Part shown: positions 7,751 through 34,423 of the stretch, in pieces
How the letters are laid out: every line of letters begins with the position of its first letter
Position numbering within the stretch: position 1 is the first letter of the stretch
DNA from: an uncultured virus (IMG/VR IMGVR_UViG_3300043101_000273)
Taxonomy: Duplodnaviria > Heunggongvirae > Uroviricota > Caudoviricetes
Length of the DNA stretch: 34,653 nucleotides
Virus record (IMG/VR): IMGVR_UViG_3300043101_000273
Strand: one strand, 5' to 3'
Position numbers and translations under genes: made by a program
The notes under the pieces: model-generated
The model's input: only the letters and a program-made list of their open reading frames with translations
Database searches by the model: none
What the model was told of the DNA's origin: nothing

Positions 7751-9090
7751 TCTATTTTTGAGTAAAGATAGCTAAAATCTTTAATATTATCAAAAGCAGT
7801 GTCAACTGCTTTTTTTATTATATTAGAAGCTCCGTTTACATCAGCATTAAGTTTAATGCCTTCTTTAGATATATATAACCCTCTATATACTCTTTTACCA
7901 CTAAAAGTATAATTAGTAGTATTATCTTTTTTATAAGTAGGAATAAAGTCATTATCTAAAAAGGAAGATTTAGATGTATAAGATTCCTCATTAAGTATAA
8001 ATTTAATATTATACATTTCACATTTATATTTAAGTTTAGAAATAAAAGTACTATGTGGTAGGAAACAAAAGTTTTGGTTATTTATTGTACCAATATTAGA
8101 CTCTTGTTTCCAAGAGCCATTTTTTCCTACCACAATAGTACCTATCTTATTAGTTAAACAATAACTTATAATATAAGTAGAAATCTTATGTATAGCATCA
8201 TTCATATAATTAGAACGATATTTATAAATATGTTCTAATCTTTTAGAAGAATAAACTCCTAAAGGGAGTTTGCTCTTTAAATCGGAAGTAACTTTATTAA
8301 AAAATTGATTTTTAGATTTAAGAACTTTCCCATTAATAATAAATGGATTTAATCCACAATTATTACTTATAGTTAGAAAATTATCTACACCTAAATCAAT
8401 TCCTATGATTTTAGATTCATCTAAATCATAGTTTTTATTTATATCCACTTCACTAACGATACATACTTTGTATGTATCGTAGTAAGGTGTTACGGTTACT
8501 TCTTTTAAGTTAGATATTTCTCTTTTACCTAAATCCAAAACTAATTTAGATTTAGGTAATTTAAGATAAAAAGTATCACCATCTCTTTTATAAACAACGG
8601 CATCTTGATTCGTTATATTAAAACTGATTTCATCAGTTTTGATATAACCAGGAAGTTTAGGCGTTCCCATAAATTTAGAAGAATTTTTAATGTATTCTTT
8701 TTTAGCATTATTATAAGATTTAAAATCATTTAAACATTCTTTAATGATATTTTGAGTAGTTTGCATAGGATTATCATTATAGTAATCTGGATTATTGTTT
8801 ACTTTAAAAACAGCGTCCATAAGATTATAAGTAGGAAATCCGCTCTTTCTTAAATCCTTATAATATTTAGAATATTCACTACTTTTAACAGCTTCAAATT
8901 CATTTAATACTTGAATTTCATTATCACTTAAATCTTTATTTTCTTTCTTCCTAGCTGTTAAAAGTTGTCTTAATCGAAAAATAACACTATTTTTAAATAA
9001 CTTAGCATTTTTACAATTTTCCTTAAAATATTCTATTAATTCTTTATTACTATCATTATTTTTAACAATAATACAATCAGTTTTATACAT
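7732..9090 (-). CDS. tnpB: RNA-guided endonuclease TnpB
   Basis: IGIDLG (RuvC-I), VVGKNGSWKQ, EESYTSK, NADVNGASNI (RuvC-III); AGGAGG RBS; TTGAAA-17-TATAAT promoter at 9126-9154. Confidence 0.92.
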   Translation of the reverse strand: MYKTDCIIVKNNDSNKELIEYFKENCKNAKLFKNSVIFRLRQLLTARKKENKDLSDNEIQVLNEFEAVKSSEYSKYYKDLRKSGFPTYNLMDAVFKVNNNPDYYNDNPMQTTQNIIKECLNDFKSYNNAKKEYIKNSSKFMGTPKLPGYIKTDEISFNITNQDAVVYKRDGDTFYLKLPKSKLVLDLGKREISNLKEVTVTPYYDTYKVCIVSEVDINKNYDLDESKIIGIDLGVDNFLTISNNCGLNPFIINGKVLKSKNQFFNKVTSDLKSKLPLGVYSSKRLEHIYKYRSNYMNDAIHKISTYIISYCLTNKIGTIVVGKNGSWKQESNIGTINNQNFCFLPHSTFISKLKYKCEMYNIKFILNEESYTSKSSFLDNDFIPTYKKDNTTNYTFSGKRVYRGLYISKEGIKLNADVNGASNIIKKAVDTAFDNIKDFSYLYSKIERINIY

Positions 9091-9239
9091 TAAAATATCC
9101 TCCTTTCTTTAAAATTTATAAAATTATTATACACTAAAATAAATATATTTTCAATATATTTCCATTAAAAAATGCAATTCATCCCCCACTTAAAAATCTA
9201 ACGATTTTTTGAAGTGGGAATACTCTCGCCTAAAACTCG

Positions 9240-9486
9240 ATAGAATGAATAGTACCAGTAACATAAAAATTAAAAAGAGCCTTTTTTATTTTACTTTTTA
9301 AATAATTATCAAAAACGGAATCGTCAAAAATATAAGATATATCTTTAAGGACTATATTATCGATAATAACATTATTAAATGTTTCATTATCGATAAAAAA
9401 CTCGTTTTTAAACTCTTCAAGAACTTCCATAGTTAAATAATTTATAAAATTTGTGCATATTCAAACATTAATCTATAAGTAGACAA
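9240..9486 (-). pseudogene. 5' half of the split family A gene, with an extra 1-nt frameshift
   Basis: TTG start at 9486 after GGGG RBS gives LSTYRLMFEYA, which is out of frame by 1 nt with NFINYLTMEVLEEF...FYVTGTIHSI. Confidence 0.8.
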
Positions 9487-9506
9487 AGCAATCCCCTTTT
9501 TCAATA

Positions 9507-9535
9507 ATTATATCATAAATTTTATGATTTGTCAA
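9507..9535 (-). promoter_or_regulatory. sigma-A promoter with extended -10
   Basis: TTGACA-17 nt-TGaTATAAT. Confidence 0.8.
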
Positions 9536-9644
9536 ATTGAAAAATTGAAGAAGTATTTAAAAGATAATGAATAGAAATATAATTTTTTAAAAACATAAGA
9601 CCTCTTAATAAGAAAATTAAAAAGTGGTTTTTTTGTATATAAAG

Positions 9645-10525: not shown

Positions 10526-11038
10526 TTATAAGTTATATTCAGAAATATAATAATTATCTGTTGCGTTCTCATATTCTTTTATTTTTTCAATTGTTTCATT
10601 TGCAATTTTAATATTTTTAAACAGCATAGTTTCATAGATAATATAATCTTTTTCTTCTTTATATTTAGAAAAAATATTATGAAGTTCTTCTAATTCATTT
10701 AAATCAAAAATTTTATCTCTATATAAATATAAAGTATCTTGATAATAAACGCTGTTTGCTACAAATCCAAGATACTGACCTAAGAAATCAAATTGAAAAG
10801 TACTATCAATTGTAAAATCTCCTGTAATAATTCTATGGAGAAATAATTGCTTTACGTCTTTAAATATTTTATTGTTATAAATTCTATATTTATGAAAAAA
10901 TATTGTCTTATCATTTAGAAATGATTGTATTTCTGTTTTATATGCTTTTTTGTTAAAAAAATCTGTATCAATATAATGAATACCATCCTTATCATTTCCA
11001 ATAAGTCCTTTATAATAAATTCCGTATAGTTTGTTCAT
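10526..11038 (-). CDS. paralog family A protein
   Basis: Start moved to ATG 11038 (MNKLYGIYY; AAAGGA RBS); family A motifs. Confidence 0.88.
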   Translation of the reverse strand: MNKLYGIYYKGLIGNDKDGIHYIDTDFFNKKAYKTEIQSFLNDKTIFFHKYRIYNNKIFKDVKQLFLHRIITGDFTIDSTFQFDFLGQYLGFVANSVYYQDTLYLYRDKIFDLNELEELHNIFSKYKEEKDYIIYETMLFKNIKIANETIEKIKEYENATDNYYISEYNL

Positions 11039-11057
11039 TAATAGTAATTCCTTTCTT

Positions 11058-11570
11058 TTAGCCAACATTGTATTCATAAATGCAATAATTATTTGACTTA
11101 GGATTGTAATTATTTAATTTCTCAATTATTTCATTTGCACTTTTGCGATATTTGAAAAATAATTTTTCAGTTGCTATATAATCTTTATCTTTTTTATATT
11201 TAGAAAAAATATTATGAAGTTTTTTTATTTCCTCTAAATTAAAAATATTATCTCTGTATAAAGAAAACGTATCTGGATAATAATTGTCAGAAGTTGTAAA
11301 AGCAAGGCATAATCCAGAAGTATCTATTTGAAAATCTCCCATAATAATTTTGTAAAAAAATTCTTTCTTTATATCTTTAAATATTTCTTCATTCCAAATT
11401 ACATAACAATAAAAAGAAAGCGATTTTTTCTTTAAAAAAGTCTGCATATCCGTTTCTGTGAAATTATTCTTTTTTAACACTTCGTTGTTAAATGAATTTG
11501 AATCAATATAAGAAACACCATCATAATAATAATGTTCCCCTTTATAATAAACCCTGTATAATTTTTTCAT
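11058..11570 (-). CDS. paralog family A protein
   Basis: Family A motifs, tandem array. Confidence 0.9.
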   Translation of the reverse strand: MKKLYRVYYKGEHYYYDGVSYIDSNSFNNEVLKKNNFTETDMQTFLKKKSLSFYCYVIWNEEIFKDIKKEFFYKIIMGDFQIDTSGLCLAFTTSDNYYPDTFSLYRDNIFNLEEIKKLHNIFSKYKKDKDYIATEKLFFKYRKSANEIIEKLNNYNPKSNNYCIYEYNVG

Positions 11571-11585
11571 TATTAGTACCTTCCC

Positions 11586-12089
11586 TTAATTTATGTTATG
11601 TTCTATTATACTATAATCAGTCCACCTAGAGTAGTAGTTCTTTAATTTTTTGATTATGTCATTCGCACTTTTTCTAGTTGTAAAGAATAATTCTTCTTCG
11701 AAATCATAATCATAGTCTTCTGTATATTTAGAAAAAATATTATGAAGTTTTTTTATTTCATTTAAATTGAAAATTTTATCTCTATATAAAGAAAAACTAT
11801 CCTTGTAATAAACTTCCTTAGCAAAAAAAATAGAACGTTCGCTAAAAGAAGTTATTTTGAAATCACCCATAATAATTCTATGGAAAAATTCTTTCTTTAT
11901 ATCTTCAAAAATTTGTTCATTGTAAACTTTATAACGATAAAAAGTCTTAGAATTTTTCTTTAAAAAAGATTGTATGTACGTTTGAGTAATATTATTTTTG
12001 CTTAAGAATTTATCATCAAAGAAATCTGAGTCAATATAATAAAACAAACTATTACAATAAATCCTATACATTTTTTTCAAAAATAACAC
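11586..12089 (-). CDS. paralog family A protein
   Basis: Family A motifs; true start probably a few codons downstream. Confidence 0.88.
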   Translation of the reverse strand: MLFLKKMYRIYCNSLFYYIDSDFFDDKFLSKNNITQTYIQSFLKKNSKTFYRYKVYNEQIFEDIKKEFFHRIIMGDFKITSFSERSIFFAKEVYYKDSFSLYRDKIFNLNEIKKLHNIFSKYTEDYDYDFEEELFFTTRKSANDIIKKLKNYYSRWTDYSIIEHNIN

Positions 12090-12096
12090 CTTCTAT

Positions 12097-12609
12097 CTAT
12101 GCAATTATAGTATAATAATAAACTCCCTGATGTGGGTAATTTTTTATTCGTTCCATTACCTTATTCGCAAAATTGTGATTTTTAAATAACAAATATTCAT
12201 ATTTGTAATAATCCTTTCCTTCCTTATAGTTAGAAAAAATACTGTGAAGTTTTTTTATTTCAGTTAGATTAAGGATTTTATGTTTATATAACAAAAAAGT
12301 ATTTGGGTATTGATAATCCTTTGTTATAAAGCAAAGCTTTGTTTTCGGTTCAAAGGGTTGTATTAAAAAATCACCTGCAAGTATTCTATGAAGAAATAAT
12401 TTCTTTACATCAGAGAATATTTTTTCATTAAGGATATCATAGTTATAAAAAAAATAAATATTCTTTTTATCCAAAAAAGATTGTATTTCTGGTTTTGTAA
12501 GATTGTTCTTTTTTAACAGTTCACTATTATTAAGAAAATTTGAATTTACGTAATTAACATAACTTCTTCTTTGTGAAAAATCCCGATAACAAATTCTGTA
12601 TAGATTCAT
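12097..12609 (-). CDS. paralog family A protein
   Basis: Start moved to ATG 12609 (GAGGTG RBS); family A motifs. Confidence 0.88.
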   Translation of the reverse strand: MNLYRICYRDFSQRRSYVNYVNSNFLNNSELLKKNNLTKPEIQSFLDKKNIYFFYNYDILNEKIFSDVKKLFLHRILAGDFLIQPFEPKTKLCFITKDYQYPNTFLLYKHKILNLTEIKKLHSIFSNYKEGKDYYKYEYLLFKNHNFANKVMERIKNYPHQGVYYYTIIA

Positions 12610-12639
12610 TTGCAGCTCACCTCTTTTTTGCATAGAAAT

Positions 12640-12668
12640 ATTATATCATAAATTTTATTTTTTGTCAA
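12640..12668 (-). promoter_or_regulatory. sigma-A promoter with extended -10
   Basis: TTGACA-17 nt-TGaTATAAT. Confidence 0.8.
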
Positions 12669-12673
12669 GAAAA

Positions 12674-12698
12674 ACAGAGAGGTAGCATCCCTCTCTGT
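12674..12698 (-). terminator. intrinsic terminator
   Basis: ACAGAGAGG/CCTCTCTGT stem after 12706..13236. Confidence 0.7.
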
Positions 12699-12705
12699 CA
12701 TATTT

Positions 12706-13236
12706 TTAAGCAAAATTTAAAATGTAATAATAATTATTTGAATTTGAATAAGGATAATTTATTATTTTTGTTACTACATCTTTTGCATATTTATATTTTT
12801 TAAAGTATAAACATTCAGCTGTAGCATAATCTTTTTCTTCTACATAATTAGAAAAAATATCATGGAATTTTTTAATTTCTCGTAATGTAAGAAATTTATT
12901 TTCATACAAATAAGCAGTTGAAGAATTAAGAAAAACCTTTTCATTATGAGTGAAATAAAGACGATTTTTTATTAAAACCGCTTTTACTTCTCCTGTAATA
13001 GTTCTATAAAAAAGAAATTTCTTAACTTCTTTAAATAATTCTTCATTGAAAATTGCGTATCTATAAAAAAACATTATATTCTTTTTATCCAAAAGGGATT
13101 GAATGTCACTTTCTTTTAGATTGTTTTTTCTTAATAATTCTTTATTATTAAGATATTTCGTATCAACTTGAAAAACTGTTTCTAATTTTTCTGATGATTT
13201 ACAATCATTATAGCATATTTTATATAATGGTGTCAT
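12706..13236 (-). CDS. paralog family A protein
   Basis: GAGGAGG RBS; family A motifs. Confidence 0.9.
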   Translation of the reverse strand: MTPLYKICYNDCKSSEKLETVFQVDTKYLNNKELLRKNNLKESDIQSLLDKKNIMFFYRYAIFNEELFKEVKKFLFYRTITGEVKAVLIKNRLYFTHNEKVFLNSSTAYLYENKFLTLREIKKFHDIFSNYVEEKDYATAECLYFKKYKYAKDVVTKIINYPYSNSNNYYYILNFA

Positions 13237-13264
13237 TTTTATCCTCCTCTTTGATGATATATTT

Positions 13265-13759
13265 TTAACACTTATAAAATAAACTTAAAAAATACCCAAT
13301 CGTTTCATACACATCAAAAAATGGATATATTTTTTTATACATTTCACTAATTGTCGCTATATCATTAGAATCTTTAAACAGTGGATAAGTTTTTTTGTTG
13401 TAATCTATATCCTCTTTAAATTTTGTTTCAATATGATTTTGTATATCTTTTAATTCTCTTAAAGTTATTACATCTTCCATATATGCTCCACGTAATCCTA
13501 ATCCATTTATTAAAAGTTGATTATTATCAATACTAAATTTTAAATTCCTACCCGTAAGAACTTCGTGTAAAAACATTTTCTTTAAAGATTTTGTAATTTC
13601 AAAATTTTTAATGATGTACACATTTGAATAAATAATATTTTTTTTAGGAATAGTGTTGATTTGTTTTTGAATATCTTTATAATCTAAAAGATTTTGAAGT
13701 GGAATTAATGTATTATTACGGTCATATTCTTTTAAAACATAATATTTTCGCTTATCCAT
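13265..13759 (-). CDS. paralog family A protein (divergent)
   Basis: AAGGAG RBS; LKKMFLHEVLTG..ITLRELKDI..DY..LF. Confidence 0.82.
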   Translation of the reverse strand: MDKRKYYVLKEYDRNNTLIPLQNLLDYKDIQKQINTIPKKNIIYSNVYIIKNFEITKSLKKMFLHEVLTGRNLKFSIDNNQLLINGLGLRGAYMEDVITLRELKDIQNHIETKFKEDIDYNKKTYPLFKDSNDIATISEMYKKIYPFFDVYETIGYFLSLFYKC

Positions 13760-15258: not shown

Positions 15259-15783
15259 TTAATCCCAAATTTTATAGTCACAAACATTCATACGAAAAAC
15301 ATAATTAGAGGATTCTTCTATTTTCCTTGCCAAATTAACAGCAAATCTATATTTTTTAAAATATAATTCTTCAAATATAATGTAATCTTTATTTTTTTCA
15401 TATTTAGAGAAAATCTTATGAAGTTCTTCTAATTCCTTTAAATTAAAAATCTTATCTCTATATAAAGAAAAAGTACTATTGTAACAAAATGAGTTTTTAA
15501 TAATAGAAAAGCTACTATCAAACATAGGTATTGTTATTTCTCCCATAATAATTTTGTGAAAAAACAATTTTTTAATGTCTTTATAAATTTCCTTATTAAG
15601 AATTGTATAATGGTAAAATGATATTGCATTTTTTTTACTCATAATATCTTCAATATAAGATTTTTCCAAGTTACTCTTATTAAAAAAATTTTCATCATTA
15701 AGATGTTTTGAATTGACAAAATGTAATCCGTTAGATTTATCAGTATCAACATCATAAAAGAAAATTCTATATAGTGTCTTCAT
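15259..15783 (-). CDS. paralog family A protein
   Basis: AAGGAGG RBS; family A motifs. Confidence 0.9.
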   Translation of the reverse strand: MKTLYRIFFYDVDTDKSNGLHFVNSKHLNDENFFNKSNLEKSYIEDIMSKKNAISFYHYTILNKEIYKDIKKLFFHKIIMGEITIPMFDSSFSIIKNSFCYNSTFSLYRDKIFNLKELEELHKIFSKYEKNKDYIIFEELYFKKYRFAVNLARKIEESSNYVFRMNVCDYKIWD

Positions 15784-15949: not shown

Positions 15950-16681
15950 ATGAAGGCAAGTATATTGAATAATAACTCTGAATATTTTATCAATTTACCT
16001 TATCCTGATGATTGTCATACGTTTAAAGAAGCAGTGAAAAAAATACATAATATTGCTGATTTTGATGAAAATAGCATTGAATTAATTAGCGATGGGAGTG
16101 GATTTGAAACTGCTGTTTATAATTATTATGAAGTTTTCAAAGATTATAGTATTGACGATTTAAATGCAGGACTTAGCTATTATTATCGTTATATTTATAA
16201 TAATAACGCATTAAGAGAAGTTTTTGTTAAGGCATTTATTGAGTGTGGCGGTTGCAATTTACTTAGTCTTGCTACGGATATTTTAGATTGTAATTTAGAA
16301 GATTTATTTATTATAAAAGAAGCAATTTCACTTGCGATTATGGAAGATAATTGTTTAAATTTTGCCATTTCTGTTTGTGCAGAAGAAGGGTATACAATAT
16401 ATCCGAGCAGAAAAGCTGCTATTGAAGGTATTTTGTCAAAGAACAATTACAAGGACGAGGAATATTTGTATTTCAATAAAGAAGAAGTTAATTATATTTT
16501 AAAAGATAAAGATATCAACAATATAAATGATTATCGTAAGGTTTTCGATAATATGTTGAATGTTTGTGATTCAAATAATTGCAATCGCACTCTTTTAGCA
16601 ACTAATGCCGATAACGTTGTTTTCTTTTGTTATAAGCTTTTTCAAATCCTTGATGATTATGATTATGAATTGGAAAAGTAA
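15950..16681 (+). CDS. family B protein, ArdA-like copy 2
   Basis: AAGGAG RBS; FINLPYP..YSIDDLN..YTIYPS..DYRK..LLAT..VVF. Confidence 0.6.
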   Translation: MKASILNNNSEYFINLPYPDDCHTFKEAVKKIHNIADFDENSIELISDGSGFETAVYNYYEVFKDYSIDDLNAGLSYYYRYIYNNNALREVFVKAFIECGGCNLLSLATDILDCNLEDLFIIKEAISLAIMEDNCLNFAISVCAEEGYTIYPSRKAAIEGILSKNNYKDEEYLYFNKEEVNYILKDKDINNINDYRKVFDNMLNVCDSNNCNRTLLATNADNVVFFCYKLFQILDDYDYELEK

Positions 16682-17827: not shown

Positions 17828-18514
17828 ATGCAGGTAAAAATTGTAGATAACGAGAAAGAATATATAATACCATTACCTTATTCTAAAGAATATAAAGATA
17901 TAAAAACTCTTATGAAAGAGCTACATAATGTTGAAAATATAAAAGATATGTCTATAATTATAAATGAATACTTACCGTTTGAAAGAGCAATGCTTAACTT
18001 CTATAACAAAAAAGAAGATTATACTATTGATATTTTAAATGAAGGTTTAACTTTTTATTATGAAAATATTTACTTATCTGCTTTTTTAAGAGAATTGTGT
18101 ACACAAGCTGTTAGTGAAATTGATGGTGGCGATTTACTTCAAATATGTAAAGATATATTAAAATGTGATTTAATAAATCCTCAGAAAATGCAAGACTTTT
18201 TCATAATAAAACAAGCACTGGGTAAAAAAGATTATTTACTTTCCACTATATATTATTGTTCTAGCGAGAAATACATTATATACAATAACACAGAAGAAGC
18301 TGTAAAAACACTTCTAAAGAATAGCAAAGAATGTAATATTTTTACGGATGAACAGATAAACTACATTTTAAATGGAGTTGCTATTGAGGAAATTACAGAT
18401 TATTATGTAATTCTTAAAAGAATGATGGAAGTTACAATAAAGAACAAGATAGAACTTGCCATCATTCCAACTATGGGTGATGTTATTGTTGTGTTGCATA
18501 TTGAGAATGTTTAA
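17828..18514 (+). CDS. family B protein, ArdA-like copy 3
   Basis: AAGGAG RBS; YIIPLPY..YTIDILN..YIIYNNTEEA..DYY..KR..IIPT..VIV. Confidence 0.6.
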   Translation: MQVKIVDNEKEYIIPLPYSKEYKDIKTLMKELHNVENIKDMSIIINEYLPFERAMLNFYNKKEDYTIDILNEGLTFYYENIYLSAFLRELCTQAVSEIDGGDLLQICKDILKCDLINPQKMQDFFIIKQALGKKDYLLSTIYYCSSEKYIIYNNTEEAVKTLLKNSKECNIFTDEQINYILNGVAIEEITDYYVILKRMMEVTIKNKIELAIIPTMGDVIVVLHIENV

Positions 18515-18895: not shown

Positions 18896-19407
18896 TAAGG
18901 ATATACTATTCAAAAATAAGTAATAAATTTATTGTAAGTAGATTTGTTTTAGAAAATCAAGAAAGACTTACGTTTAATAAATTAAAATCTATTTTAAAAA
19001 CTAATTATAAGGAAACAATGAATGTTTTAGAAACATACGGAGCAGATGTTGTAATAACAGGATATCGTTTTTTTAACATTTCAAAAGTCGATATAAAAAA
19101 AGCATTATTACATCAAATATTGCAAGGATTAAGAATTGGTTTTCAACTTCCTGAAAAAATAAAATTGACAGATAAACGTAATGAAATAAAACTTATAATT
19201 AACGGAGATTTTGACATCAAATATCCTGAGTATGATAACGATTTTCAAAGGCAACAGAATGAAGAAGTTTTTCAAATAATTAGTAATAAGTTTAAAATTA
19301 ATAAAGATTTTTCTGTTAATATAGTTTATGATTTTAAGAATATCAATGAAGCTCAAACCTTTTGTAACTATTTAAATAATAAAGATAAAATGTTAGAGTT
19401 AAAATAA
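18892..19407 (+). CDS. paralog family A protein (divergent)
   Basis: GGAGG RBS; RIYY..YRFFN..IKKALLHQILQG..KDF..F. Confidence 0.8.
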   Translation: MIRIYYSKISNKFIVSRFVLENQERLTFNKLKSILKTNYKETMNVLETYGADVVITGYRFFNISKVDIKKALLHQILQGLRIGFQLPEKIKLTDKRNEIKLIINGDFDIKYPEYDNDFQRQQNEEVFQIISNKFKINKDFSVNIVYDFKNINEAQTFCNYLNNKDKMLELK

Positions 19408-19440
19408 AAAAGAGAGGGAATAATTAGCCCTCTCTTTTTT
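19408..19440. terminator. bidirectional terminator
   Basis: AAAAGAGAGGG/CCCTCTCTTTT between convergent genes. Confidence 0.8.
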
Positions 19441-20703: not shown

Positions 20704-21156
20704 ATGCAATTAAATAAAAATGCTATAAATCTAATATTTAAATCGGGTAATAAAATATTAACTTATAAAAAGGAAGTGTATATTTTGGACAAAATTTTAA
20801 CAGATATTATAGATATATTTAATTTAAAAGAAGCCAAATTAGTAAGGTTATCAGGTTTAACATTAAGAGAAAGAAAAATGTTTTATGATATAACTCCACA
20901 ATTATTAATAAGGATAATAAACAAATTGAAAAAAGAGAATGTTATTCATTTTAGTAAAATAGTTTATTGCCCTCATTGTAAGGAAGTTTTTTATTTAATA
21001 GAAGATGTAAACGGTGAAAAAGTATGTGATACGTGCGGAAGAAAGTTTAATGTATCTAAATTAAATACATTAAACGAATATGAAGTGGAAGGTATTGTTG
21101 ATGTATTGATGGATAATGCAGGTAATTTACAACAAAAAAATTTGAAAAAGTCTTGA
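20704..21156 (+). CDS. zinc-ribbon protein
   Basis: CPHC...CDTC motif. Confidence 0.75.
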   Translation: MQLNKNAINLIFKSGNKILTYKKEVYILDKILTDIIDIFNLKEAKLVRLSGLTLRERKMFYDITPQLLIRIINKLKKENVIHFSKIVYCPHCKEVFYLIEDVNGEKVCDTCGRKFNVSKLNTLNEYEVEGIVDVLMDNAGNLQQKNLKKS

Positions 21157-21181
21157 CAAATATAAAAAAATATGATACAAT
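21153..21181 (+). promoter_or_regulatory. sigma-A promoter with extended -10 driving the long non-coding unit
   Basis: TTGACA-17 nt-TGaTACAAT; predicted TSS ~21187-21188. Confidence 0.75.
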
Positions 21182-21185
21182 ACAA

Positions 21186-22122
21186 TTGTATTATCGAAGG
21201 TAAAGAACTTCCAATTTTTTCTTAAATATTACTAATTATGAATAGATATTTGTTCATATTATTAGTAATAGCTTATATGCAAATAATTCAATTTTATATA
21301 TTTTTTATAAAAAATAGGAATTGTTAGTATTATACTCAAATATGTAAAAAAGAAAAATTTACATATAAGTGATTTTATAAGTTTGAAAATAGATTGTTGT
21401 TTGATAACACAATAATGTATTTTATTAAAGTTTTTTGAAAAGAAATACATTGAAAAACAAATATATTTTAAATAAACTTATAAAAACTATTCGATAATAC
21501 AAAAAACTTAATTTATTTAGGAAAAAGATAAATTGAGTTTTTGAACCCTTTTTAAGGGCGTAATACTATTATTTTTTATAATGCTATGCTATTATTTGTG
21601 GTAATAGAATGTTATTAAGAAATTAGAGAAAGTCCGCATTTTTCCAATAAATAGCAAACCTAAAAAATAGTGACGTTTATAAAAACAAAATCCCCGAATT
21701 TTTATACGCATTAGTAAAAATGATGGTCAGGTTGTTGATATATTAAAATTTTTTATTTTTGCAAGCTAAAATAACCCCTTTGTTTATTAGATATAGTAGG
21801 GTAAAATAGAAAAGCTTTGAAACTTGATAAAAATATCTATAATTACTTTAATATTTGTTAAAGTGAGAAGTTCTTAAAAATAATTCTCTGAACAGTTTCG
21901 CTATTTTTACACAAGAAACTTTAAAAAAATGTACATTGCACAAAAAATAATTTCTATGTTAAGTTGCTTTTGTAAAAATCAAAAATAATAAATTATAAAT
22001 ATAAATTATTTCCTGTCAATAAAGCGTTATTCATATATTTAAATTAATTAGAAAAAGTACAAGAGTACGGATATGTGAATAACGAGAATATAAAAAAGAG
22101 AGTGAATATCCACTCTCTTTTT
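21186..22122 (+). ncRNA. candidate large structured non-coding RNA (~930 nt)
   Basis: Promoter at 5' end, terminator at 3' end, no credible ORF, more than 10 helices (several nested) with G-U pairs mostly on the + strand. Confidence 0.65.
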
Positions 22123-22123
22123 T
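22092..22123. terminator. bidirectional terminator
   Basis: AAAAAAGAGAGTG-AATATC-CACTCTCTTTTTT. Confidence 0.85.
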
Positions 22124-22126
22124 ATT

Positions 22127-25100
22127 TTAACTTAAATAATCATTTATTGATAAACGAGAACTATTATATTTAGCTTTCATAAACTTAGAATACTTATCAT
22201 AACAGAATGTAATCCAATCAATAGCAGGTTGTATATCTGAATCAATTGCATTTTCTGAATATGAGAATATAATTCCATGGTCAGTATTATCTTTTGAATA
22301 AAAATCAATATAAAAAGCTTCATATTCATCATCTTTATCAAATGTAGTTTTTTGTTCAGAAGGGTACATTAATTTAACATCAAACTCCGCTCTTGGATAA
22401 CTATTGTTAAATGACTTAAAAATATCATACGGAAGTATTTGTGTTATTTTATTCTTGTTGGCAAGGTAAGAAGAAGAATTTATTGCATTGTATGTTTGTA
22501 ATATCTTACCTGTTTCGGTTGCAGAAGATACGCCTAACAAACAATTCAAATCACTACTACTATTAAATTTAATATAATAATCTGTATTAAATTCACTATA
22601 TGTAGGATTAACAACTAAATCTGTTTTTGAAGTGCTCATTTCAAATTTAACACAACGCCAACTACCAAATTGTTTATCTGATTCTTCTATATATAATTCT
22701 AATAAGAAATCAATTAAATCTTGTTTATCGTCAAATCTTAATAAGTGTCCGATTAATGTATTTGGGTCTTTATATGTAGGTTCTGGTTCACTAACAGGAG
22801 TTTCAACTGTAACAGGAGTTGTAACTGTTTCTATTTTACTTGCAACTTTATATAAAGCGTAATATGTTGCATCTTGCGTTGGTGGATTTTCTATTTCTGT
22901 AACAGTTCTTTTATCTGTTGACCAACCTAATAAACTATACTTATATTTATTAGTTTCTTTTGTTTCTTTTAATTCAGGAATACTCTTTATCTTGTTCCCT
23001 TGTTTTACGTTTACAGTAGAAATAAGAGAATTATCTGTATTTTTAAAATTGATAATATATAATAATTGTTTTTCAAATAAATAAACAGGATAGAACCATA
23101 AATCTTCATTTATTTCATAATTTGCATATGGATTATAAGTTCTGTTATTGCTGTAATTGATACAGAATATATCGGTTTCAATATCAAAAATTTCATTTTC
23201 ATAATAATCATAATGATAAAGATTTGTATCAAAAACAAAACCATAATTCAAACAATTATCTGTACTCCATCCTTTGAAATATTTTGTGTAAAATTTACTT
23301 GATATTTCTTCGGAAGAAGGTATGCAATCATTAACCTCTTTAAATGTATCACTTGTTAAATCTGTATTAGTTATTTTTTCACCTTGATATTTTTTAAATT
23401 TATGGTTTTTATCTAAGAAATATACATAGTAAATATTAGTTTCTTTGTATTTAGGATAAATATCTTTATCTGTATCAAATTCAATTTTATCAATGATTTT
23501 TATTTCTTCATTATCTTTTAAATAATACCAATAGTCAAAATCATATTTAATTCTTTCTGTTTCAGCTTTTGTTAGTATTATTGAAGAATAATCTTTATAA
23601 GTTAATGTTTTTGATTCAACTTCTGTAAAACTATTTAATTTATTTCCATTTATATCATCATAAAAAGTAATCTTATGTTTTTTTTCATATTCTTTATAAG
23701 TAAAACTCTTTATAGCCATAGTGGCTTCATTTATTGTTAAATTTGTATTATTGATACATTCATTATTTATAATACAATTTGCATTTTCTGTATTTTCTAA
23801 TTCAATATACTCTCCTGAAGGGTTATAAATAAAAGTGGATTCTTCAATAATATTAATATCAGAAATTGTACCTTTGCTTTCGTCCCAATTAAGCAATGTA
23901 TCGAAATCAACAGCCCCATCATTATCTGAACGGAGATTAACCCAAATAGGTGTAATCGCATCATTGAACAAAAATGTAGAAAATTTGTTTGTTTCGGTAT
24001 TAAGTAAACAAATATTGCTCTTTACTGATTTTGTCGTTGTAAGAGTATATGTGAATAATTTAAGTTTTGTTCTTTGTGAAAGTTTGAACATAGATTCATC
24101 TGGCACTAGTACTATATATTTAGAATAATCATAATTTAATATTTGGTAAACAAACCCTGCAATAAAAGCGGCACATTCATCAGTTGTTTTAAATACTTTA
24201 ATAGAAGAAGCTGTTATGTTAAAACTTATTTCTAATGGTTTATTCTTGTAAAATACTGGTTTATTTTCATCCGTTATAAAATTAATATTTAAATTGTAAA
24301 AAGGATTTGATTCTTCATTGTCATTTGTAAGATTAATTTCTGATACAGAAAAATCAAAATTATAAATTAAATCTTCTTGTTTAAGCGTTAATGTGCTGTT
24401 AGCAGTTATATTATTCACATCACTTAATGTACAAGTTGTAATTGTTAAATTTTCAGGTGTAAAATAGTAACAATCATTTTTAATATTAAAATTAGTTATC
24501 TTATCGATTTCAGCTTTCCAAGTGTAATTAGAAGAATAAATTGGGTCAAAATTATATATTGCTTCATATTTCCTATCAACTAATTCATAATCCCCTTCTA
24601 ATGTGTTAAGGTTAAATTCAAAATTACTTGAATTAAGTTCGCTACTAAAAACAGCATAGAAAGTCAAATCTTGGTCTTTGTAAATTTCGGTAGTTGCAAA
24701 ATCAATAGGATTAGAATAACGACTTTCTAATGACCAGCCCTCAAACTTAAATGAAATAGTTTTTTCATCTATAATAATATCATTTTTAATTGGATTTTCA
24801 TTAGGTGGAGTTACTAGTTGATTTTTCGTTTTTTCTAATATAATGGTTTCTTGTTGATAAATTTCATCTTCAACATACCAAACGATGTCACCTTTTGTTA
24901 TTTTAGATTTTGCATAGAATTTATAGATATTTTTTTCATTTTCTACACCTGAGAAGTAACCATCTTCAATATGAATAGTTGTATATCCATCATCGCCTGC
25001 GTATACTACAATATTTTCTAAATTTTCATCACTACACCAGCCTATGAATACTTCTTTATCATAAGTAGGATTTTCAATTTTTACATCACAATTTGTTGTT

Positions 25101-28057
25101 GTAGTATTATTTTCAAGAGAATATATATGGTTATCAATTACTGTTGTGTATTCTGTTTCTCCTACGTAGAAGTTTGCAATACTATCATAAGTAGGATTAA
25201 TCCAATTTCGTGATTCATACTTAACTGTTGTAAGATTTGTATACGGACCAGCAGATTCACTATCAACAATTTCTTCATTAATAGTTTCAGAATTTGCAGT
25301 TGCAGGGATGTTGTAAACATTCCAATCTTGGAATTTATTATATATACCTACTTTTGAGAATGTATTAAAATAGAAATCTTCGTTAAAATATTTATCTATA
25401 TTAGTATAAATATCATAGTAATAATCACTTGACATTGGCTCAGATGGCAACTCTTTACTTTCTGTTGCCGCATAGAAACCACCAAAGTATTTATTACCTA
25501 TTATTTTCCCATCTTGTCTTGCTAATTCTTTTGTGTTTTCTATTTCTAATGGTTGTTCGTTTTCATAAAAATAAATTTTAGAATTTTCTGATGATATTTG
25601 TGCTAATGTTGGTCTATAACTTGCATTATGATTAGTGTATTTGTTTTCATCAGTACCATAAGTTACAAAAGTTTCAAATATTGGTTTTGCAATTTGGTCA
25701 ATCATAGCATAATAGGTTTTATCATACTCGAAATCTTCCGTATTTACTCTATTGTTTGCCATTTTAATTCTATCGCAATTATCTAATTTTGTTTTATATT
25801 CTTCATTTTCCGTCCAACCTGCGAAAAATAAATAATGTGTATCGGTTTCAGAATCTTCAACTATAGGAGCTTCTATAGCATCATCTTCAATTATTGTTGT
25901 GGTTATTTCTCCATCAACAACAAAGTATGTTTTTAATCGTTCAATATCATCAAATTTAGCATAAAATGAATAGGTGTAAAGATAAATTCTTTCAGAAGCC
26001 ATAAATTCATTTTCAGTGAATCCAATACCACTTAATTGTTTTTTATCAAGTTCTCCATCATACATATTTACTTCTATGTAATCTTGGTTGTTTTTTACTG
26101 AACATACAAGATTACTTAAATCAGACTTATTAGACCAACCTGTAAATTTTCTAAACTTAGGATTTTCAGGATTGTTTACTTTTATGGCTGCTGCTGGGTT
26201 TCCTTCATCAACAAAATCTTCATATTTTTCGCTTTGTACTATTTCTCCGTCTATATAAAAATTACATTTAAAATATTGTTTGGTTCTATGTGCTGTATAG
26301 TTTTGGTATGATTCTTCTATATTTTCTATGATATTACTAATATCAGGTTGCCCGTTTTCATTTATAGAAATTTCTGTAATAGGGGAATAGTTATATTCAC
26401 CTATTGTTTTAAACGTATCATTATCTCTATAATTACTTGTGTATAAGCTCCAGTAATTAAAATATCGTATTATTGAAATAGCTTTGCCATTCTCATCACC
26501 ATATTCTGAATTATCAAAATAACTAATATCGTAGTAATCTTGCAATTCCTTCATATCATTAGTAGTATTATCGTCAGAGAATGGATAGACCTTTTTAGTG
26601 ATTTTTGCATTATCAATATCTTCGGCAGTAGTGGTATATGCAAGGTCTGATACAGAATCCCACCTCTGACTACCACCATAACTATACCAATGATAAAATT
26701 TTACTGTTACTTTCTGTTTAGGTATTTGTATAAACATTGCATAATATGTATTACCTAATTCAAAATCAGTTGTTTTATCTGTTAAATAATTATTATAACT
26801 ACCATCTACATTATTGTAGGTTTCGTTTTTAGACCATCCATAGAATAAATAATTATAACTATCATCTTCTAAGGTTTTCACTTCGGGAGGAGTTGTATTA
26901 TCTCCTTGTTGTTTTATTTCTCCATTCACAATAAATGTGATATCATTATTGCTTGCAGTTTCTTCAAATTTAGCATAATAATTATCTACATAAGAATAAT
27001 AATCATAGCTACATTCACCGTTATCATAATAATTATATGTAAACAAACTCTCTCCGTTTCCACCATATGATGTACCAACTTGTACATTTATACAATCTTT
27101 GTCATCTGAAGCAGGATATATTAAATCTTCTAATGCTTCATCAGAACACCACCCTAAAAATATTTTTCCATCCAAAACAGGATTTTCTACTTCTTGGTAG
27201 TTATATTCATCTTGCGAATCACATTCTATAATAAATTGTTTATATGGTTCTGCATTATCACCCACATAAAAATTATGAGTACATAAATAATATCTAAAAT
27301 CATAAGAAAATGTGCAAATGTATTTTATTGTTACTTCTTCTTCGGAACTATCAGTTTTTAAATCACCTGAATCGTTAAAACTAAAGAATGTGGTATAACA
27401 ATATAAACTACAATCAACAATAAAAAAAGCGTTTTCATAGTTATCAGGTTGAAAATTCTCATTAGAAGTATAATCACCATACCAACCATTAAAACTCCTA
27501 GTACCTATTTTATATTCTACGTCATCAAACAACTGAGTAATAGTAATCTCGTTAGAAAAAAAGTCTTTATCGTTTGATATCTCTATTACTGTATTTTCAA
27601 ACTCTGTTTCCAAATCGTCACTGTTTTCGATATATAAAGGAGAAAAACTATAATAACTATCGTTTTGACTTGCTATTACATCATCTATGGTAGTTTTATA
27701 AGTATATGTATTATATGTTGTTTCTTGATTTTCTGAACAAAATTTTATATTTATTGTTTGTCTTTTAATTTTTATAAAAACAGCATAATAAGCTTTACCA
27801 ATCTCATATTCATATGATTCATCAGTAATTACTTCATTTTGATTTACAATATACTCGGTACTGATATTTTCGTATTTTTCATCTTCTGACCAACCATAAA
27901 AATAATAACTATAATCGTCATCATCATAGTTTTCTATTGTTGGTGGTGTTGTATTGTCTGTTGCTTGCAATGTCTTTCCATTACAAATAAATGTAATTAC
28001 GTCACTTGCTTTCGCTATTTTTTCTTCTGTATTTTCGTTATTATTTATATCTGCCAT
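22127..28057 (-). CDS. 1976-aa acidic protein with many Listeria-Bacteroides (InlB B-repeat/Flg_new-like) repeats; probable virion-associated adhesin
   Basis: Repeated 'itF..dG....P....y.F.GW....yYA.F' units; no signal peptide or LPxTG anchor; AGGCGGTG RBS. Confidence 0.75.
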   Translation of the reverse strand: MADINNNENTEEKIAKASDVITFICNGKTLQATDNTTPPTIENYDDDDYSYYFYGWSEDEKYENISTEYIVNQNEVITDESYEYEIGKAYYAVFIKIKRQTINIKFCSENQETTYNTYTYKTTIDDVIASQNDSYYSFSPLYIENSDDLETEFENTVIEISNDKDFFSNEITITQLFDDVEYKIGTRSFNGWYGDYTSNENFQPDNYENAFFIVDCSLYCYTTFFSFNDSGDLKTDSSEEEVTIKYICTFSYDFRYYLCTHNFYVGDNAEPYKQFIIECDSQDEYNYQEVENPVLDGKIFLGWCSDEALEDLIYPASDDKDCINVQVGTSYGGNGESLFTYNYYDNGECSYDYYSYVDNYYAKFEETASNNDITFIVNGEIKQQGDNTTPPEVKTLEDDSYNYLFYGWSKNETYNNVDGSYNNYLTDKTTDFELGNTYYAMFIQIPKQKVTVKFYHWYSYGGSQRWDSVSDLAYTTTAEDIDNAKITKKVYPFSDDNTTNDMKELQDYYDISYFDNSEYGDENGKAISIIRYFNYWSLYTSNYRDNDTFKTIGEYNYSPITEISINENGQPDISNIIENIEESYQNYTAHRTKQYFKCNFYIDGEIVQSEKYEDFVDEGNPAAAIKVNNPENPKFRKFTGWSNKSDLSNLVCSVKNNQDYIEVNMYDGELDKKQLSGIGFTENEFMASERIYLYTYSFYAKFDDIERLKTYFVVDGEITTTIIEDDAIEAPIVEDSETDTHYLFFAGWTENEEYKTKLDNCDRIKMANNRVNTEDFEYDKTYYAMIDQIAKPIFETFVTYGTDENKYTNHNASYRPTLAQISSENSKIYFYENEQPLEIENTKELARQDGKIIGNKYFGGFYAATESKELPSEPMSSDYYYDIYTNIDKYFNEDFYFNTFSKVGIYNKFQDWNVYNIPATANSETINEEIVDSESAGPYTNLTTVKYESRNWINPTYDSIANFYVGETEYTTVIDNHIYSLENNTTTTNCDVKIENPTYDKEVFIGWCSDENLENIVVYAGDDGYTTIHIEDGYFSGVENEKNIYKFYAKSKITKGDIVWYVEDEIYQQETIILEKTKNQLVTPPNENPIKNDIIIDEKTISFKFEGWSLESRYSNPIDFATTEIYKDQDLTFYAVFSSELNSSNFEFNLNTLEGDYELVDRKYEAIYNFDPIYSSNYTWKAEIDKITNFNIKNDCYYFTPENLTITTCTLSDVNNITANSTLTLKQEDLIYNFDFSVSEINLTNDNEESNPFYNLNINFITDENKPVFYKNKPLEISFNITASSIKVFKTTDECAAFIAGFVYQILNYDYSKYIVLVPDESMFKLSQRTKLKLFTYTLTTTKSVKSNICLLNTETNKFSTFLFNDAITPIWVNLRSDNDGAVDFDTLLNWDESKGTISDINIIEESTFIYNPSGEYIELENTENANCIINNECINNTNLTINEATMAIKSFTYKEYEKKHKITFYDDINGNKLNSFTEVESKTLTYKDYSSIILTKAETERIKYDFDYWYYLKDNEEIKIIDKIEFDTDKDIYPKYKETNIYYVYFLDKNHKFKKYQGEKITNTDLTSDTFKEVNDCIPSSEEISSKFYTKYFKGWSTDNCLNYGFVFDTNLYHYDYYENEIFDIETDIFCINYSNNRTYNPYANYEINEDLWFYPVYLFEKQLLYIINFKNTDNSLISTVNVKQGNKIKSIPELKETKETNKYKYSLLGWSTDKRTVTEIENPPTQDATYYALYKVASKIETVTTPVTVETPVSEPEPTYKDPNTLIGHLLRFDDKQDLIDFLLELYIEESDKQFGSWRCVKFEMSTSKTDLVVNPTYSEFNTDYYIKFNSSSDLNCLLGVSSATETGKILQTYNAINSSSYLANKNKITQILPYDIFKSFNNSYPRAEFDVKLMYPSEQKTTFDKDDEYEAFYIDFYSKDNTDHGIIFSYSENAIDSDIQPAIDWITFCYDKYSKFMKAKYNSSRLSINDYLS

Positions 28058-29566: not shown

Positions 29567-30735
29567 GGCTTTGTCATAACAAACAGTTGACTTTTATTAG
29601 AAATCGTGATATAATAACATCGTAGTTAGAGACGGAATAATGCCATAGTAAAGGAGTGTTGACAAATGCCTACAATACAGGATGCTTTAAACATAATCAA
29701 TAAGCTGAGTGCAGCCGAACGAAAAACTCTCAAATTAATGCTGTTAATTTCTGCATTTGTTAAAACTATGGATATTGAGGAATTTGTAACTAAGGATAGA
29801 TTCGCCAAGGGCAGAGTATGCCCTATTTGCGGTGGTACACATATAGTTCGTAATGGTCATAGAAAAGATGGTACTCAGAGATATGTATGCAGAGAATGTG
29901 GTAAATCATTCGTAATAACAACAAACTCTATCGTATCAGGCACAAGAAAAGACCTGTCTGTATGGGAAAAATACATTGATTGTATGATGAATGGGTTATC
30001 TATTCGTAAGACAGCAACTATTTGTGGTATTCATAGAAATACGGCTTTTATTTGGAGACAGAAAATTTTAGATGCACTTCAAAATATGGCAAATGGTGTA
30101 AACTTAGAAGGTATCATTGAAGCAGATGAAACTTTTTTCGCAATTTCATACAAAGGAAATCATAAAGACAGCCCTAACTTTACTATGCCCGTAAATCACA
30201 CAAGCGTGGTCATTCTACGCATATTCGTGGTTTGTCAAGAGAAAAGGTATGTGTTCCCTGTGCGGTAAATAGGTGTGGTATGTCTATTTCTAAGATAACA
30301 AACACAGGTAGAGTTGCTACTAAGGATTTGCACCATATTTATGACGGTAGGATTAAAGAACACTCTACTCTTGTTACTGATAAAATGAACTCTTACGTTA
30401 GATTTGCCAACGCCAATGGTGTTGAATTAATACAATTGAAAACAGGCAAAGCAAAAAAGGGTATCTATAACATTCAGCATATAAATAACTATCATAGTCA
30501 GTTAAAGCATTTCATAGATAAATTCAATGGGGTTTCTACTAAATACTTAAATAACTACCTTATATGGCATAACTTTGTAAATTATGCCAAAGAAACGGAT
30601 ACGGAGAAGAAGATTATTCTCTTAACTTTTGTTTTAACTACTTTAAAAACTGATAGATGTAGAGATTTATCAAGTAGACCAGCTGTACCCTTGATTGCTT
30701 GACTTTACGATTTTGTTGGTCTTGATAAAAAAGCT
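29567..30735 (+). mobile_element. IS1595-family insertion sequence
   Basis: Left end GGCTTTGTCATAACAAAC at 29567, internal promoter TTGACT-17-TATAAT (29587-29615), higher GC; right end degenerate/uncertain, no TSD found. Confidence 0.75.
29666..30702 (+). pseudogene. IS1595 transposase split by a 1-nt frameshift
   Basis: CPIC..CREC zinc ribbon, HTH, EADET, LVTD, HINNYHS, GVSTKYL; one extra base at CCC 30188-30190 restores MPRKSHKRGHSTHIRGLSREK. Confidence 0.88.
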
Positions 30736-30803: not shown

Positions 30804-31328
30804 TTATCTCTCAGAATAAAAATCTTCCGTATTTTCTTGTTGCCACAGCAAATCCTCTTTCATTTCTTTCATCTTGTCAGCATTAAATTCAGGTTTTGCA
30901 TATAATTTCACATCTTCTATATCTAATCCGCATTCAAAACCGTCTAATATCTGATACATTTGTTTGTAATCAAACTCAGGTTTTGCATATATTGATACAT
31001 CAACTCCATTTCTAAGTCCACATTTTATTTGCTGCATTTGGGATGCTTCAAATTCAGGTTTTGCATATATTGATACATCAAATCCAATGCTAAGTCCACA
31101 TCTTATTTGATACATTTGGTCGGCATTAAACTCAGGTTTTGCATATGTTTTTACTTCTTCAATTGTTAAATTATCATAACAAAAACCACCTTTTATTTGG
31201 GATAATTGGTTTTCATTAAATCCTGCATTTTCACAAGTTTCCATAAATTCTTCTGGTGTAGTAATTTGAGATAATGCTAATTTATTTAATCTTCTAACAA
31301 TTCTATTTTTAAATTTATTATATTTCAT
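30804..31328 (-). CDS. helical-repeat protein, family C
   Basis: Four YAKPEF repeats, near-identical at DNA level; GAGGGAG RBS. Confidence 0.9.
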   Translation of the reverse strand: MKYNKFKNRIVRRLNKLALSQITTPEEFMETCENAGFNENQLSQIKGGFCYDNLTIEEVKTYAKPEFNADQMYQIRCGLSIGFDVSIYAKPEFEASQMQQIKCGLRNGVDVSIYAKPEFDYKQMYQILDGFECGLDIEDVKLYAKPEFNADKMKEMKEDLLWQQENTEDFYSER

Positions 31329-33943: not shown

Positions 33944-34423
33944 ATGGAAGTAATTAAAAGAGATGGACACAAGGATGTATTTGACGAAAATAAAATTATT
34001 AGTGCTTTAACTAAGACATTTATTGAAGTTGATGGTGAAATTACAGAAGAAAGTAAAACTAAAATCTTAAATATTGCTAATAGCATTAACAAAAAGAACA
34101 AGTTAATCACAATAGAAGAAATTCAAAACATTGTAGAAGATAAGTTAATGGCAAGCAATAGAAAAGATGTTGCAAGAGCTTATATCAGATATAGATATAA
34201 GAGAGAATTAGTTAGACAGGGGAATACAACAGATAAGAGTATTAAGGAATTAATAGAGGGTACTAATGATTATTGGAACACAGAAAATTCTAATAAAAAT
34301 CCAAGAGTTGTAACTACTCAAAGAGATTATTTAGCTGGTATTACAAGTACAGATATTGCAACAAGATTTTTGTTGCCTGATGACATTGTAAAGGCTCACG
34401 ATGAGGGTATAATTCATTTCCAT
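33944..34423 (+). CDS. nrdD: anaerobic (class III) ribonucleoside-triphosphate reductase, exon 1
   Basis: ATP-cone VIKRDG..EEIQNIVE..ARAYIRYR, ENSNK, QRDYLAG, AHDEGIIHFH; frame breaks where HD is expected. Confidence 0.92.

Follow-up and report, generated by a model that had tools for sequence, protein, structure and literature searches.

The subject of this analysis was a 970-base gene-free gap at positions 21157-22126 of a 34,653-nucleotide (nt) stretch of DNA from an uncultured virus (IMG/VR record IMGVR_UViG_3300043101_000273), the whole of which is called the window. The gap is bounded by the stops of a + strand open reading frame (ORF) of 150 amino acids (aa) and of a convergent 1976-aa gene. 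Because this non-coding gap starts with a promoter and ends at a terminator that each belong to a family found in the same phage, a + strand noncoding transcript from it is likely. The reading that we favour, though tentatively and at somewhat less than an even chance, is that of a lineage-specific early noncoding RNA, ~355 nt long, which read-through would extend to ~935 nt. A preliminary description of the sequence had proposed one giant structured RNA of ~930 nt, akin to the GOLLD and ROOL RNAs; the gap is instead a modest noncoding-RNA candidate, which has not proved to be giant or ornate and belongs to no known family.

The gap is non-coding. On the + strand there was no ORF of at least 30 aa between 21157 and 22074, and translation with code 4, or with TAG or TAA read as glutamine, gave no credible long frame in the gap; reading TAA as sense opened frames everywhere, as expected at 21% GC. 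The period-3 power of the gap was 0.22, versus 2.5-17 in nine coding controls. For the longest minus-strand ORF in the gap (62 aa), neither a homologue nor a ribosome-binding site was found, and gene calling did not select it. Remnants of a gene were sought by tblastn of 25 window proteins against the gap (nothing below E 0.1), with the profile of an eight-member paralogue family of the window (negative scores in all six frames of the gap), and with 21 neighbour proteins of relatives (no remnant within the gap). A decayed protein gene was rejected, there being neither residual similarity nor codon periodicity. The earlier statement that the unit has no credible ORF was thus borne out with four genetic codes, by periodicity and by the remnant searches.

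The promoter is of the early sigma-A type (TTGACA-17-TGaTACAAT, + strand, 21153-21181). It was found as the preliminary description had given it, matching the consensus at 11 of 12 positions plus the TG, and it overlaps the TGA stop of the 150-aa ORF, called here the zinc-ribbon gene. Transcription from it would start at ~21187-21189. The window contains 23 sites that match TTGACA-16/18-TATAAT at 11 or more of the 12 positions, versus 4.9 ± 2.5 (maximum 11) in 100 Markov simulations. Perfect sites account for 12 of the 23, and 26 perfect sites are present in the nearest viral record (G001, 102 kb), which is identical to the window across the gap and hence uninformative. The majority of the 23 are located 25-90 nt ahead of a gene start, with AAGGAGG and ATG after them. 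The family, with examples at 1975, 6307, 10227, 12668, 15213, 15845, 15889, 18554, 20004, and 33162, supplies about one promoter per gene. The family has an extended spacer consensus, TTGACAAA.ATAAAAAAT.., often with TG before the -10 element, and the site at 21153-21181 fits it. Over 43 nt, that site shares 84% identity with the promoter at 6309-6267. What sets it apart from the rest of the family is the lack of a Shine-Dalgarno sequence plus start codon within 75 nt. Judged from its sequence, the promoter at 21153-21181 is real by family membership. A 504-kb relative (G002) was dropped as a comparator of regulatory design, as it has one perfect consensus promoter in 504 kb versus 26 in 102 kb here. 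An antisense promoter-like site at 21992-22019 (TTGACA-16-TATAAT, 12 of 12) lacks the family spacer consensus and has no ORF behind it; its standing as a promoter is uncertain, and the RNA predicted from it was unstructured (z 0.0).

At the other end of the gap lies a strong bidirectional intrinsic terminator (22090-22125; A6-GAGAGTG-loop-CACTCTC-T6; dG -15.5 / -15.8), which adjoins the stop of the 1976-aa minus-strand gene at a distance of 2 nt. It forms one family with the terminator at 19406-19440: the two share flanks and stem, with a compensatory T:A to G:C change in the stem, and both lie between convergent genes. Because the terminator is bidirectional and only 2 nt past the stop of the giant gene, it is common to both units. 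The claim that the unit ends at a terminator therefore stands for 22090-22125, but this terminator is shared with the convergent gene and is not the unit's own. Within the gap, an AU-rich 17-bp hairpin with two G-U pairs is flanked by A5 and T5 on the + strand (21502-21542; dG -12.3 kcal/mol, followed by the T-run). Its stability falls within the range of the weaker gene-end terminators of this phage (-12 to -20), and it is terminator-like in both directions. This hairpin is probably a weak or leaky terminator, which would give an RNA of ~355 nt.

Folding of the + strand was compared with that of shuffled sequences. The whole unit (937 nt) had a minimum free energy (MFE) of -196.6, versus -146.7 ± 5.9 for the shuffles (z -8.5; none of 20 folded as well). 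For positions 21187-21550 the z value was -7.9, with 0 of 100 shuffles as good, and sliding-scan windows over the 3' end, which contains the hairpin at 22025-22084 and the terminator, gave z -4.2 to -4.3. In both the MFE and the centroid structures, the first part (21187-21502) is a 5' domain in the form of a multibranch loop with one short and three long hairpins. It starts at the predicted start site and ends exactly at the terminator-like hairpin 21502-21542. The closing helix pairs 21187-21201 with 21486-21501 and contains the perfect 13-bp repeat 21186-21198/21490-21502, which the preliminary description had noted and which was confirmed. Perfect inverted repeats of at least 13 bp numbered 2, versus 0.26 ± 0.50 per shuffle (300 shuffles), and those of at least 12 bp numbered 4, versus 0.73 ± 0.85 (300 shuffles); the closing helix is notable for its position rather than its length, since a 13-bp perfect repeat is not rare by itself.

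Inside the closing helix, the first long hairpin (21227-21270) has 19 bp in two helices of 10 and 9 bp (21227-21236/21261-21270 and 21237-21245/21250-21258) separated by a 2-nt bulge, with two G-U pairs and a 4-nt loop. The second (21271-21370) is interrupted, with helices of 13, 3, 12, 5, and 3 bp, and the third (21373-21485) has 13 + 14 bp, a side hairpin at 21430-21438/21450-21458 and a 12-bp perfect core at 21373-21384/21474-21485. Altogether, 102 of the 128 pairs in the domain (80%) are A-U. Several of the helices listed earlier were found again, namely the two helices of the first hairpin with their two G-U pairs, 21373-21385/21473-21485, 21502-21518/21526-21542, and 22025-22040/22069-22084 with its three G-U pairs. 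For two others, 21340-21348/21358-21366 and 21414-21422/21443-21451, the complementary stretches exist but compete with longer-range pairings in the MFE structure, the former being an alternative local pairing within the second hairpin. Downstream of the 5' domain, 21546-22024 is a non-coding stretch with chance-level folding (period-3 power 0.58) that contains two CCCC motifs (21692-21695 and 21775-21778). Between this stretch and the terminator, directly upstream of the latter, lies the 16-bp hairpin 22025-22084, which has three G-U pairs when read on the + strand and encloses a GUAC/GUAC hairpin.

Fifty predicted early transcripts (46 from G001 and four from window positions 1-7800) were ranked by the folding of their first 360 nt, with six shuffles each and the standard deviation floored at 3. 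The 5' domain ranked first, with a rough z of -11.4 versus -5.6 for the next. The transcripts ranked after it were mostly from other promoters with no nearby gene. Three more strong promoters in the window lack a nearby gene start: one on the + strand at 289, which runs antisense to the gene at 405-1289, one on the minus strand at 9535, which heads a leader of ~420 nt before TnpB, and one on the + strand at 33162, which heads a leader of ~750 nt before the nrdD start. The first 360 nt from these promoters gave rough z values of -4.8, -5.6, and -4.4, respectively.

From these features we infer transcription, RNA ends, and function as follows. The sigma-A RNA polymerase of the host would start at ~21187-21189 from the early-family promoter. 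The first ~315 nt would fold co-transcriptionally into the multibranch domain, in which a helix of 13-15 bp pairs the 5' end with 21486-21502. The hairpin 21502-21542 and its T-run would end some of the transcripts, to give the ~355-nt RNA, and the remainder would continue through ~480 nt of loosely structured RNA and the 22025-22084 hairpin to the terminator at 22090-22125, to give ~935 nt. In Bacillota, 5'-terminal stem-loops protect against RNase J1. The product may be a stable trans-acting RNA whose base-paired 5' end guards it against 5'-exonuclease, and its long double-stranded arms or an exposed C-rich loop could bind a host or phage factor or an mRNA during early takeover. It is conceivable, but doubtful, that the 5' domain (~315-355 nt, its two ends joined by the closing helix) founds a new class of structured RNA produced early by huge Bacillota phages, unrelated to GOLLD and ROOL, with its arms acting as a decoy or scaffold for a host factor such as an RNA-sensing defence or a nuclease. 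On that view, the ORF-less promoters at +289, -9535, and +33162, whose predicted RNAs are also unusually structured, would point to an RNA arm of the host-takeover programme. In a metatranscriptome (X1) represented by assembled contigs only, which cannot show presence or absence, contigs with zero differences covered 22280-22856 and 23917-24181 of the adjacent 1976-aa gene, and none lay on 20876-22143.

Several results weigh against an early noncoding RNA of this kind. The middle ~480 nt of the unit (21495-21986) folded no better than shuffles (z -1.3; 10 of 100 as good). In these models, unusual folding is confined to 21187-21550 plus the 3' hairpin and terminator, so that of the proposed giant structured RNA there remains a unit that beats shuffles as a whole, with the excess limited to ~360 nt and the 3' end. 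The hairpin 21502-21542 has only one G-C pair and was absent from a stricter terminator scan. The helices of the 5' domain are 9-17 bp long, AU-rich, and near-perfect, which gives them a young look, unlike an old RNA fold with its short helices and conserved junctions; they could just as well be recent palindromes in the DNA. Folding of the minus strand nearly matched that of the + strand: z was -7.2 over the full region, -7.6 in its 5' part, and -1.1 in 21495-21986, which is what inverted repeats at the level of DNA give. Other non-coding gaps of the window had z values of -4.2 to -5.5, on both strands in three of four, versus -1.2 and -2.1 for a coding control (eight shuffles each). When 1-30720 was scanned with 360-nt windows (254 windows), the most structured stretch was the TnpB region, and the TnpB coding strand at 7921-8760 had a z of -10.1. 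Because the TnpB coding region and other gaps also beat shuffles, an extreme z is not specific to RNA genes in this genome.

The preliminary description had taken the imperfect pairs, most of which read as G-U on the + strand, as a sign of selection on RNA. The asymmetry is present: in the 5' domain, 12 pairs are G-U on the + strand versus 2 on the minus strand (12.6 versus 7.5 in shuffles), a + strand share of at least 12 in 14 was seen in none of 150 shuffles, and 22021-22126 has three on the + strand versus one on the minus strand. Most of it, however, is a matter of G exceeding C, as judged by the shuffles and control gaps. A difference of at least 10 between the strands occurred in 17 of 150 shuffles, and in the control regions the asymmetry followed G/C composition. 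The GC skew here is mild (+0.14 overall), with 37 G versus 22 C in the 5' domain. The G-U asymmetry therefore lends weak support to a + strand RNA.

No homologous gap DNA was found in any search, hence there was neither covariation nor conservation evidence, and the homologues that the preliminary description had proposed to collect from related phages by nhmmer did not materialize. The gap had no match in the GenBank phage collection in a distant-mode search; there was no gap DNA at 21 loci with zinc-ribbon homologues (blastn and nhmmer) or in records G002-G005 (BLAST, and for G002 also nhmmer). The relatives without a gap homologue included a 504-kb genome that is 100% complete, a 416-kb genome that is 99% complete, and two fragments. 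Both helix arms and an 18-mer from the gap found no homologue in the viral collection. The peptide pattern LVRLSGLTLRE had no match there and four unrelated matches in genome contigs. Scans anchored on proteins (the 150-aa protein, the C-terminus of the giant protein, P0003, and alignments A1 and A2) found no gap DNA among the matches listed.

Synteny was also broken at the gap. At 14 related loci whose ORF layout was inspected, protein genes that the window lacks follow directly after the zinc-ribbon gene with no gap. Stand-alone ORFs of 154-160 aa in three of four related records are homologous to the C-terminal ~90 residues of the 1976-aa protein (22127-22400) (matches at L007:9411-9881, G004:30020-30283, and G003:184926-185135). 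In the relatives, five or six + strand genes lie between the zinc-ribbon gene and the homologue of this domain, and in one of them the homologue is a 156-aa gene that follows the zinc-ribbon gene at ~4.4 kb and shares its strand. From sequence comparison, the C-terminal domain in this lineage appears to have become part of a giant protein of Listeria-Bacteroides repeats by fusion, and to have changed its orientation with respect to the zinc-ribbon gene. Because the relatives have no gap and the C-terminal homologue is displaced, the gap lies at a rearrangement junction and is lineage-specific.

The strongest alternative is that the gap is a neutral AT-rich spacer left at a junction of rearrangement or gene loss, in which palindromes arose by replication slippage or template switching and which may be transcribed, from a duplicated early promoter at its edge, into a functionless RNA. 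The lineage-specific gap with no homologue in the 504-kb and 416-kb relatives or the two fragments, the broken synteny, the equal folding of the 5' part on both strands, the near-perfect AU-rich helices, and the like behaviour of other window gaps on both strands are all in its favour, and the 84% identity to the promoter at 6309-6267 is consistent with duplication. On the other hand, the 5' domain greatly exceeds the other gaps in structure and stands first among the 50 predicted early transcripts, its boundaries match the predicted start site and the terminator-like hairpin, and its helix imperfections favour the + strand. In addition, the phage is otherwise tightly packed, and 970 nt between convergent genes is unusual, as such genes need no promoter space. 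We consider the neutral spacer rather unlikely, while regarding it as a serious competitor of the early RNA.

The gap could also belong to the zinc-ribbon mRNA as a long 3' untranslated tail, or be a substrate for processing, rather than an RNA gene in its own right. The hairpins would then serve as cleavage or stabilising elements of the RNase III type and as an insulator between the convergent units. There was no terminator-like hairpin between 21157 and 21385, that is, none after the zinc-ribbon stop, and because no terminator lies behind that stop, the zinc-ribbon transcript probably reads into the gap. The near-perfect hairpins of 19-33 bp resemble double-stranded RNA, and the unit ends at the bidirectional terminator that it has in common with the convergent gene. 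A full family promoter placed exactly at the start of the structured domain argues against such a tail, as do other convergent gene pairs of this phage (such as that at 19407/19439), for which a single bidirectional terminator and almost no spacer suffice. A tail or substrate of this kind seems improbable.

A DNA-level element is more improbable again. It would be either an invertible switch, with 291 bp between the 13-bp repeats, or a site of replication or recombination that uses cruciforms or single-strand hairpins. Invertons of the fimS type are ~300 bp long, with short perfect inverted repeats, and lie beside a promoter. The gap resembles them in that its perfect 13-bp inverted repeats flank 291 bp just downstream of a strong promoter; folding is strand-symmetric, promoter-like sites converge on the AT-rich region, and the synteny break at the locus is of the inversion type. 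It differs from them in lacking an invertase gene in its vicinity, in having its promoter outside the repeats, and in the long hairpins of its own that occupy the interior. No recombinase or invertase gene was found in the window, where the genes of mobile elements are limited to TnpB, at a distance of 12 kb, and a split IS1595 transposase, at 8 kb. Shuffles contain a perfect 13-bp repeat 0.26 times on average, and no promoter better than 9 of 12 lies within the 291-bp segment. Nor was there a second copy in G001 or the viral collection, or a cluster of DnaA boxes, iterons, or tandem repeats. As a replication origin the gap was rejected for want of a DnaA-box cluster: it has one site with one mismatch, and the window has 18 versus 11.9 ± 3.9 expected, which is not above chance; an initiator site peculiar to the phage is still conceivable. 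The search of the gap for iterons or tandem repeats gave nothing beyond 2-4 copies of AT units of 7-13 nt. A miniature inverted-repeat transposable element was rejected as well, since no second copy was found in G001, the rest of the window, or the viral collection (both arms), and the flanking bases are not duplicated.

Least probable of all, to the point that we set it aside, is one giant ornate RNA of ~930 nt akin to GOLLD and ROOL, whether as a divergent member of these classes or as a new class that matches them in complexity: the whole unit does beat shuffles, and the phage has the promoter and Shine-Dalgarno style of Bacillota, GOLLD and ROOL being RNAs of phages and prophages (bioRxiv 10.1101/2024.12.08.627333), but there was no Rfam match at any threshold (so that family membership is largely refuted), the middle ~480 nt is unstructured, no tRNA genes are nearby, the helices are long and simple rather than ornate, and no relatives were found. 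The Rfam search at gathering thresholds gave no match in the whole window. With an E value of up to 10 and lax filters, 21050-22250 gave nine chance-level hits of 13-21 bits (fragments of mir-627, sraA, snoRNA, and CRISPR-DR). Divergent membership of GOLLD or ROOL, as first suggested, thus found no match to either family at gathering thresholds or at E values up to 10, and the comparison with Rfam that had been proposed as a check (GOLLD, ROOL, OLE, and introns) gave no credible match.

Rfam provides profiles for GOLLD, ROOL, and OLE (bioRxiv 10.1101/2024.12.08.627333). The same preprint describes GOLLD and ROOL as large RNAs of phages and prophages, many of them of Bacillota, whose function is not known; they lie near tRNA islands and have intricate pseudoknotted folds that are supported by covariation and assemble into multimeric cages (bioRxiv 10.1101/2024.12.08.627333). 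The gap resembles them as a large noncoding RNA candidate in a phage of a Bacillota-type host. It differs in having no tRNAs nearby, since ARAGORN found no tRNA gene in the 34.6-kb window and none in 80 kb more of the same phage, and in its fold, which comprises ~360 nt of long simple AU helices where GOLLD and ROOL have many short helices and pseudoknots over 500-800 nt.

Closer parallels come from phage K, a Staphylococcus phage (Kayvirus), for which PMC9241854 describes two long noncoding RNAs from intergenic regions (635 and 1154 nt). One of them has an early promoter of its own, and their function is not known. Like these (lnc001 and lnc002), the gap is intergenic, ORF-free, hundreds of nt long, and equipped with its own early promoter in a large phage of Bacillota. 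The phage K RNAs were seen by RNA sequencing and lie beside tRNA genes, whereas here transcription is inferred, there are no tRNAs nearby, and no sequence match was found. They are the nearest functional analogue in print. Full-text literature searches on noncoding or structured RNAs of megaphages or huge phages gave no relevant paper among the matches listed.

Small RNAs of Bacillota of the RsaE/RoxS type are conserved, ~100-200 nt long, and carry C-rich seed loops. The gap is like them in its sigma-A promoter, its intrinsic terminator, and a looped CCCC (21692-21695) that could pair with GGAGG or GGGG ribosome-binding sites like those in front of this phage's genes; it differs in that the known RNAs are shorter and the motif enrichment here is marginal. 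The CCCC motif occurs twice versus 0.31 expected, at least two copies were present in 55 of 1000 shuffles, and the copy at 21692-21695 lies in an MFE hairpin loop. The C-rich seed idea was set aside because the enrichment was marginal. A riboswitch, T-box, or other cis-acting leader was rejected, as there was no Rfam match and no ORF between the hairpin 21502-21542 and the final terminator. A group I or group II intron was also rejected: none was matched in the window, whereas in another part of the phage this search did detect a group I intron, and the gap lies between convergent 3' ends.

Most of what is known about huge phages comes from metagenomes, and their RNA biology has hardly been explored. 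The early region here consists of arrays of paralogous genes, each with a near-perfect promoter of the host type, and a few of the promoters are without a gene. Of the transcripts predicted across ~110 kb of the genome, the one headed by the promoter at 21153-21181 folds most strongly. If the early noncoding RNA is real and functional, it would be an orphan structured RNA in the takeover toolkit and, at ~355 nt, a small object for structure work. If the gap is a neutral spacer, it would serve as a warning that phage DNA of 20% GC gives very negative z values on both strands, even within a protein gene, and that such values alone do not suffice to recognise an RNA gene.

This very AT-rich phage is likely to be a huge one whose host is of the Bacillota type, given the genome sizes of its relatives, the homologue in phage G, and the style of its promoters and ribosome-binding sites. 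G001 and the window together cover ~110 kb of a genome of possibly ~500 kb. The zinc-ribbon gene (20704-21156, + strand) has weak zinc-ribbon matches in Pfam and homologues of 114-127 aa in a family of at least 11 proteins, one of which is gp430 of Bacillus phage G (497 kb). An identical protein is encoded on at least nine contigs, the longest of which has 502,690 bp, and relatives were located in the 504-kb and 416-kb viral genomes. The nearest proteins among the matches listed were P0003 (82% identical; three contigs of at most 8.2 kb) and P0004 and P0005 (59%; contig of 24 kb). The 1976-aa gene (22127-28057, minus strand) contains Listeria-Bacteroides repeats (PF09479) and is convergent with the gap unit.

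Other window genes encode a DNA methyltransferase, a dUTPase, NrdG- and NrdD-type parts of ribonucleotide reductase, TnpB, and an IS1595 transposase; most remaining ORFs were without a family match. GC content ranges from 16 to 32% across the window. The window also carries arrays of paralogous small genes: a family of eight members at 28-54% identity, a second family of three, and one pair. These lie at 5753-6223, 10526-13759, and 15259-15783; at 6551-7339, 15950-16681, and 17828-18514; and at 4486-5118 and 30804-31328. No member matched a Pfam family, and many have their own consensus promoter. The layout resembles that of a host-takeover or anti-defence region.

Positions 1860-4485 form a stretch of ~2.6 kb with 16-17% GC and no credible gene; a 146-aa ORF with a TTG start (2894-3334) sits in repeat sequence. 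Motifs of the TTCTATATATA type are dense there, and TCTATATATA occurs 18 times on the + strand and six times on the minus strand of the window, mostly in 1860-4485. The array looks like iterons or phage-specific promoter or operator sites, and a replication origin is possible. The intact TnpB gene (7732-9090, minus strand; OrfB_IS605 plus TNB domains) and its flanks (7340-7731 and 9091-9644) are the most hairpin-rich part of the window, and the TnpB frame holds several perfect local palindromes of 15-17 bp. The IS1595-family transposase (29666-30702) is split into a zinc-ribbon/helix-turn-helix ORF (29666-30268) and an overlapping DDE ORF (30232-30702), and is either frameshifted or a broken copy. 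The NrdD frame (33944-34444) ends after 166 aa, with the ATP-cone and the first ~50 residues of the NRDD domain; in G001 (70596-75373), ORF-free gaps of 0.67, 2.2, and 1.3 kb come after it, and the nrdD gene may be interrupted. The group I intron found elsewhere in the phage lies at G001:21477-21810, within a 3.3-kb gap (G001:21327-24634).

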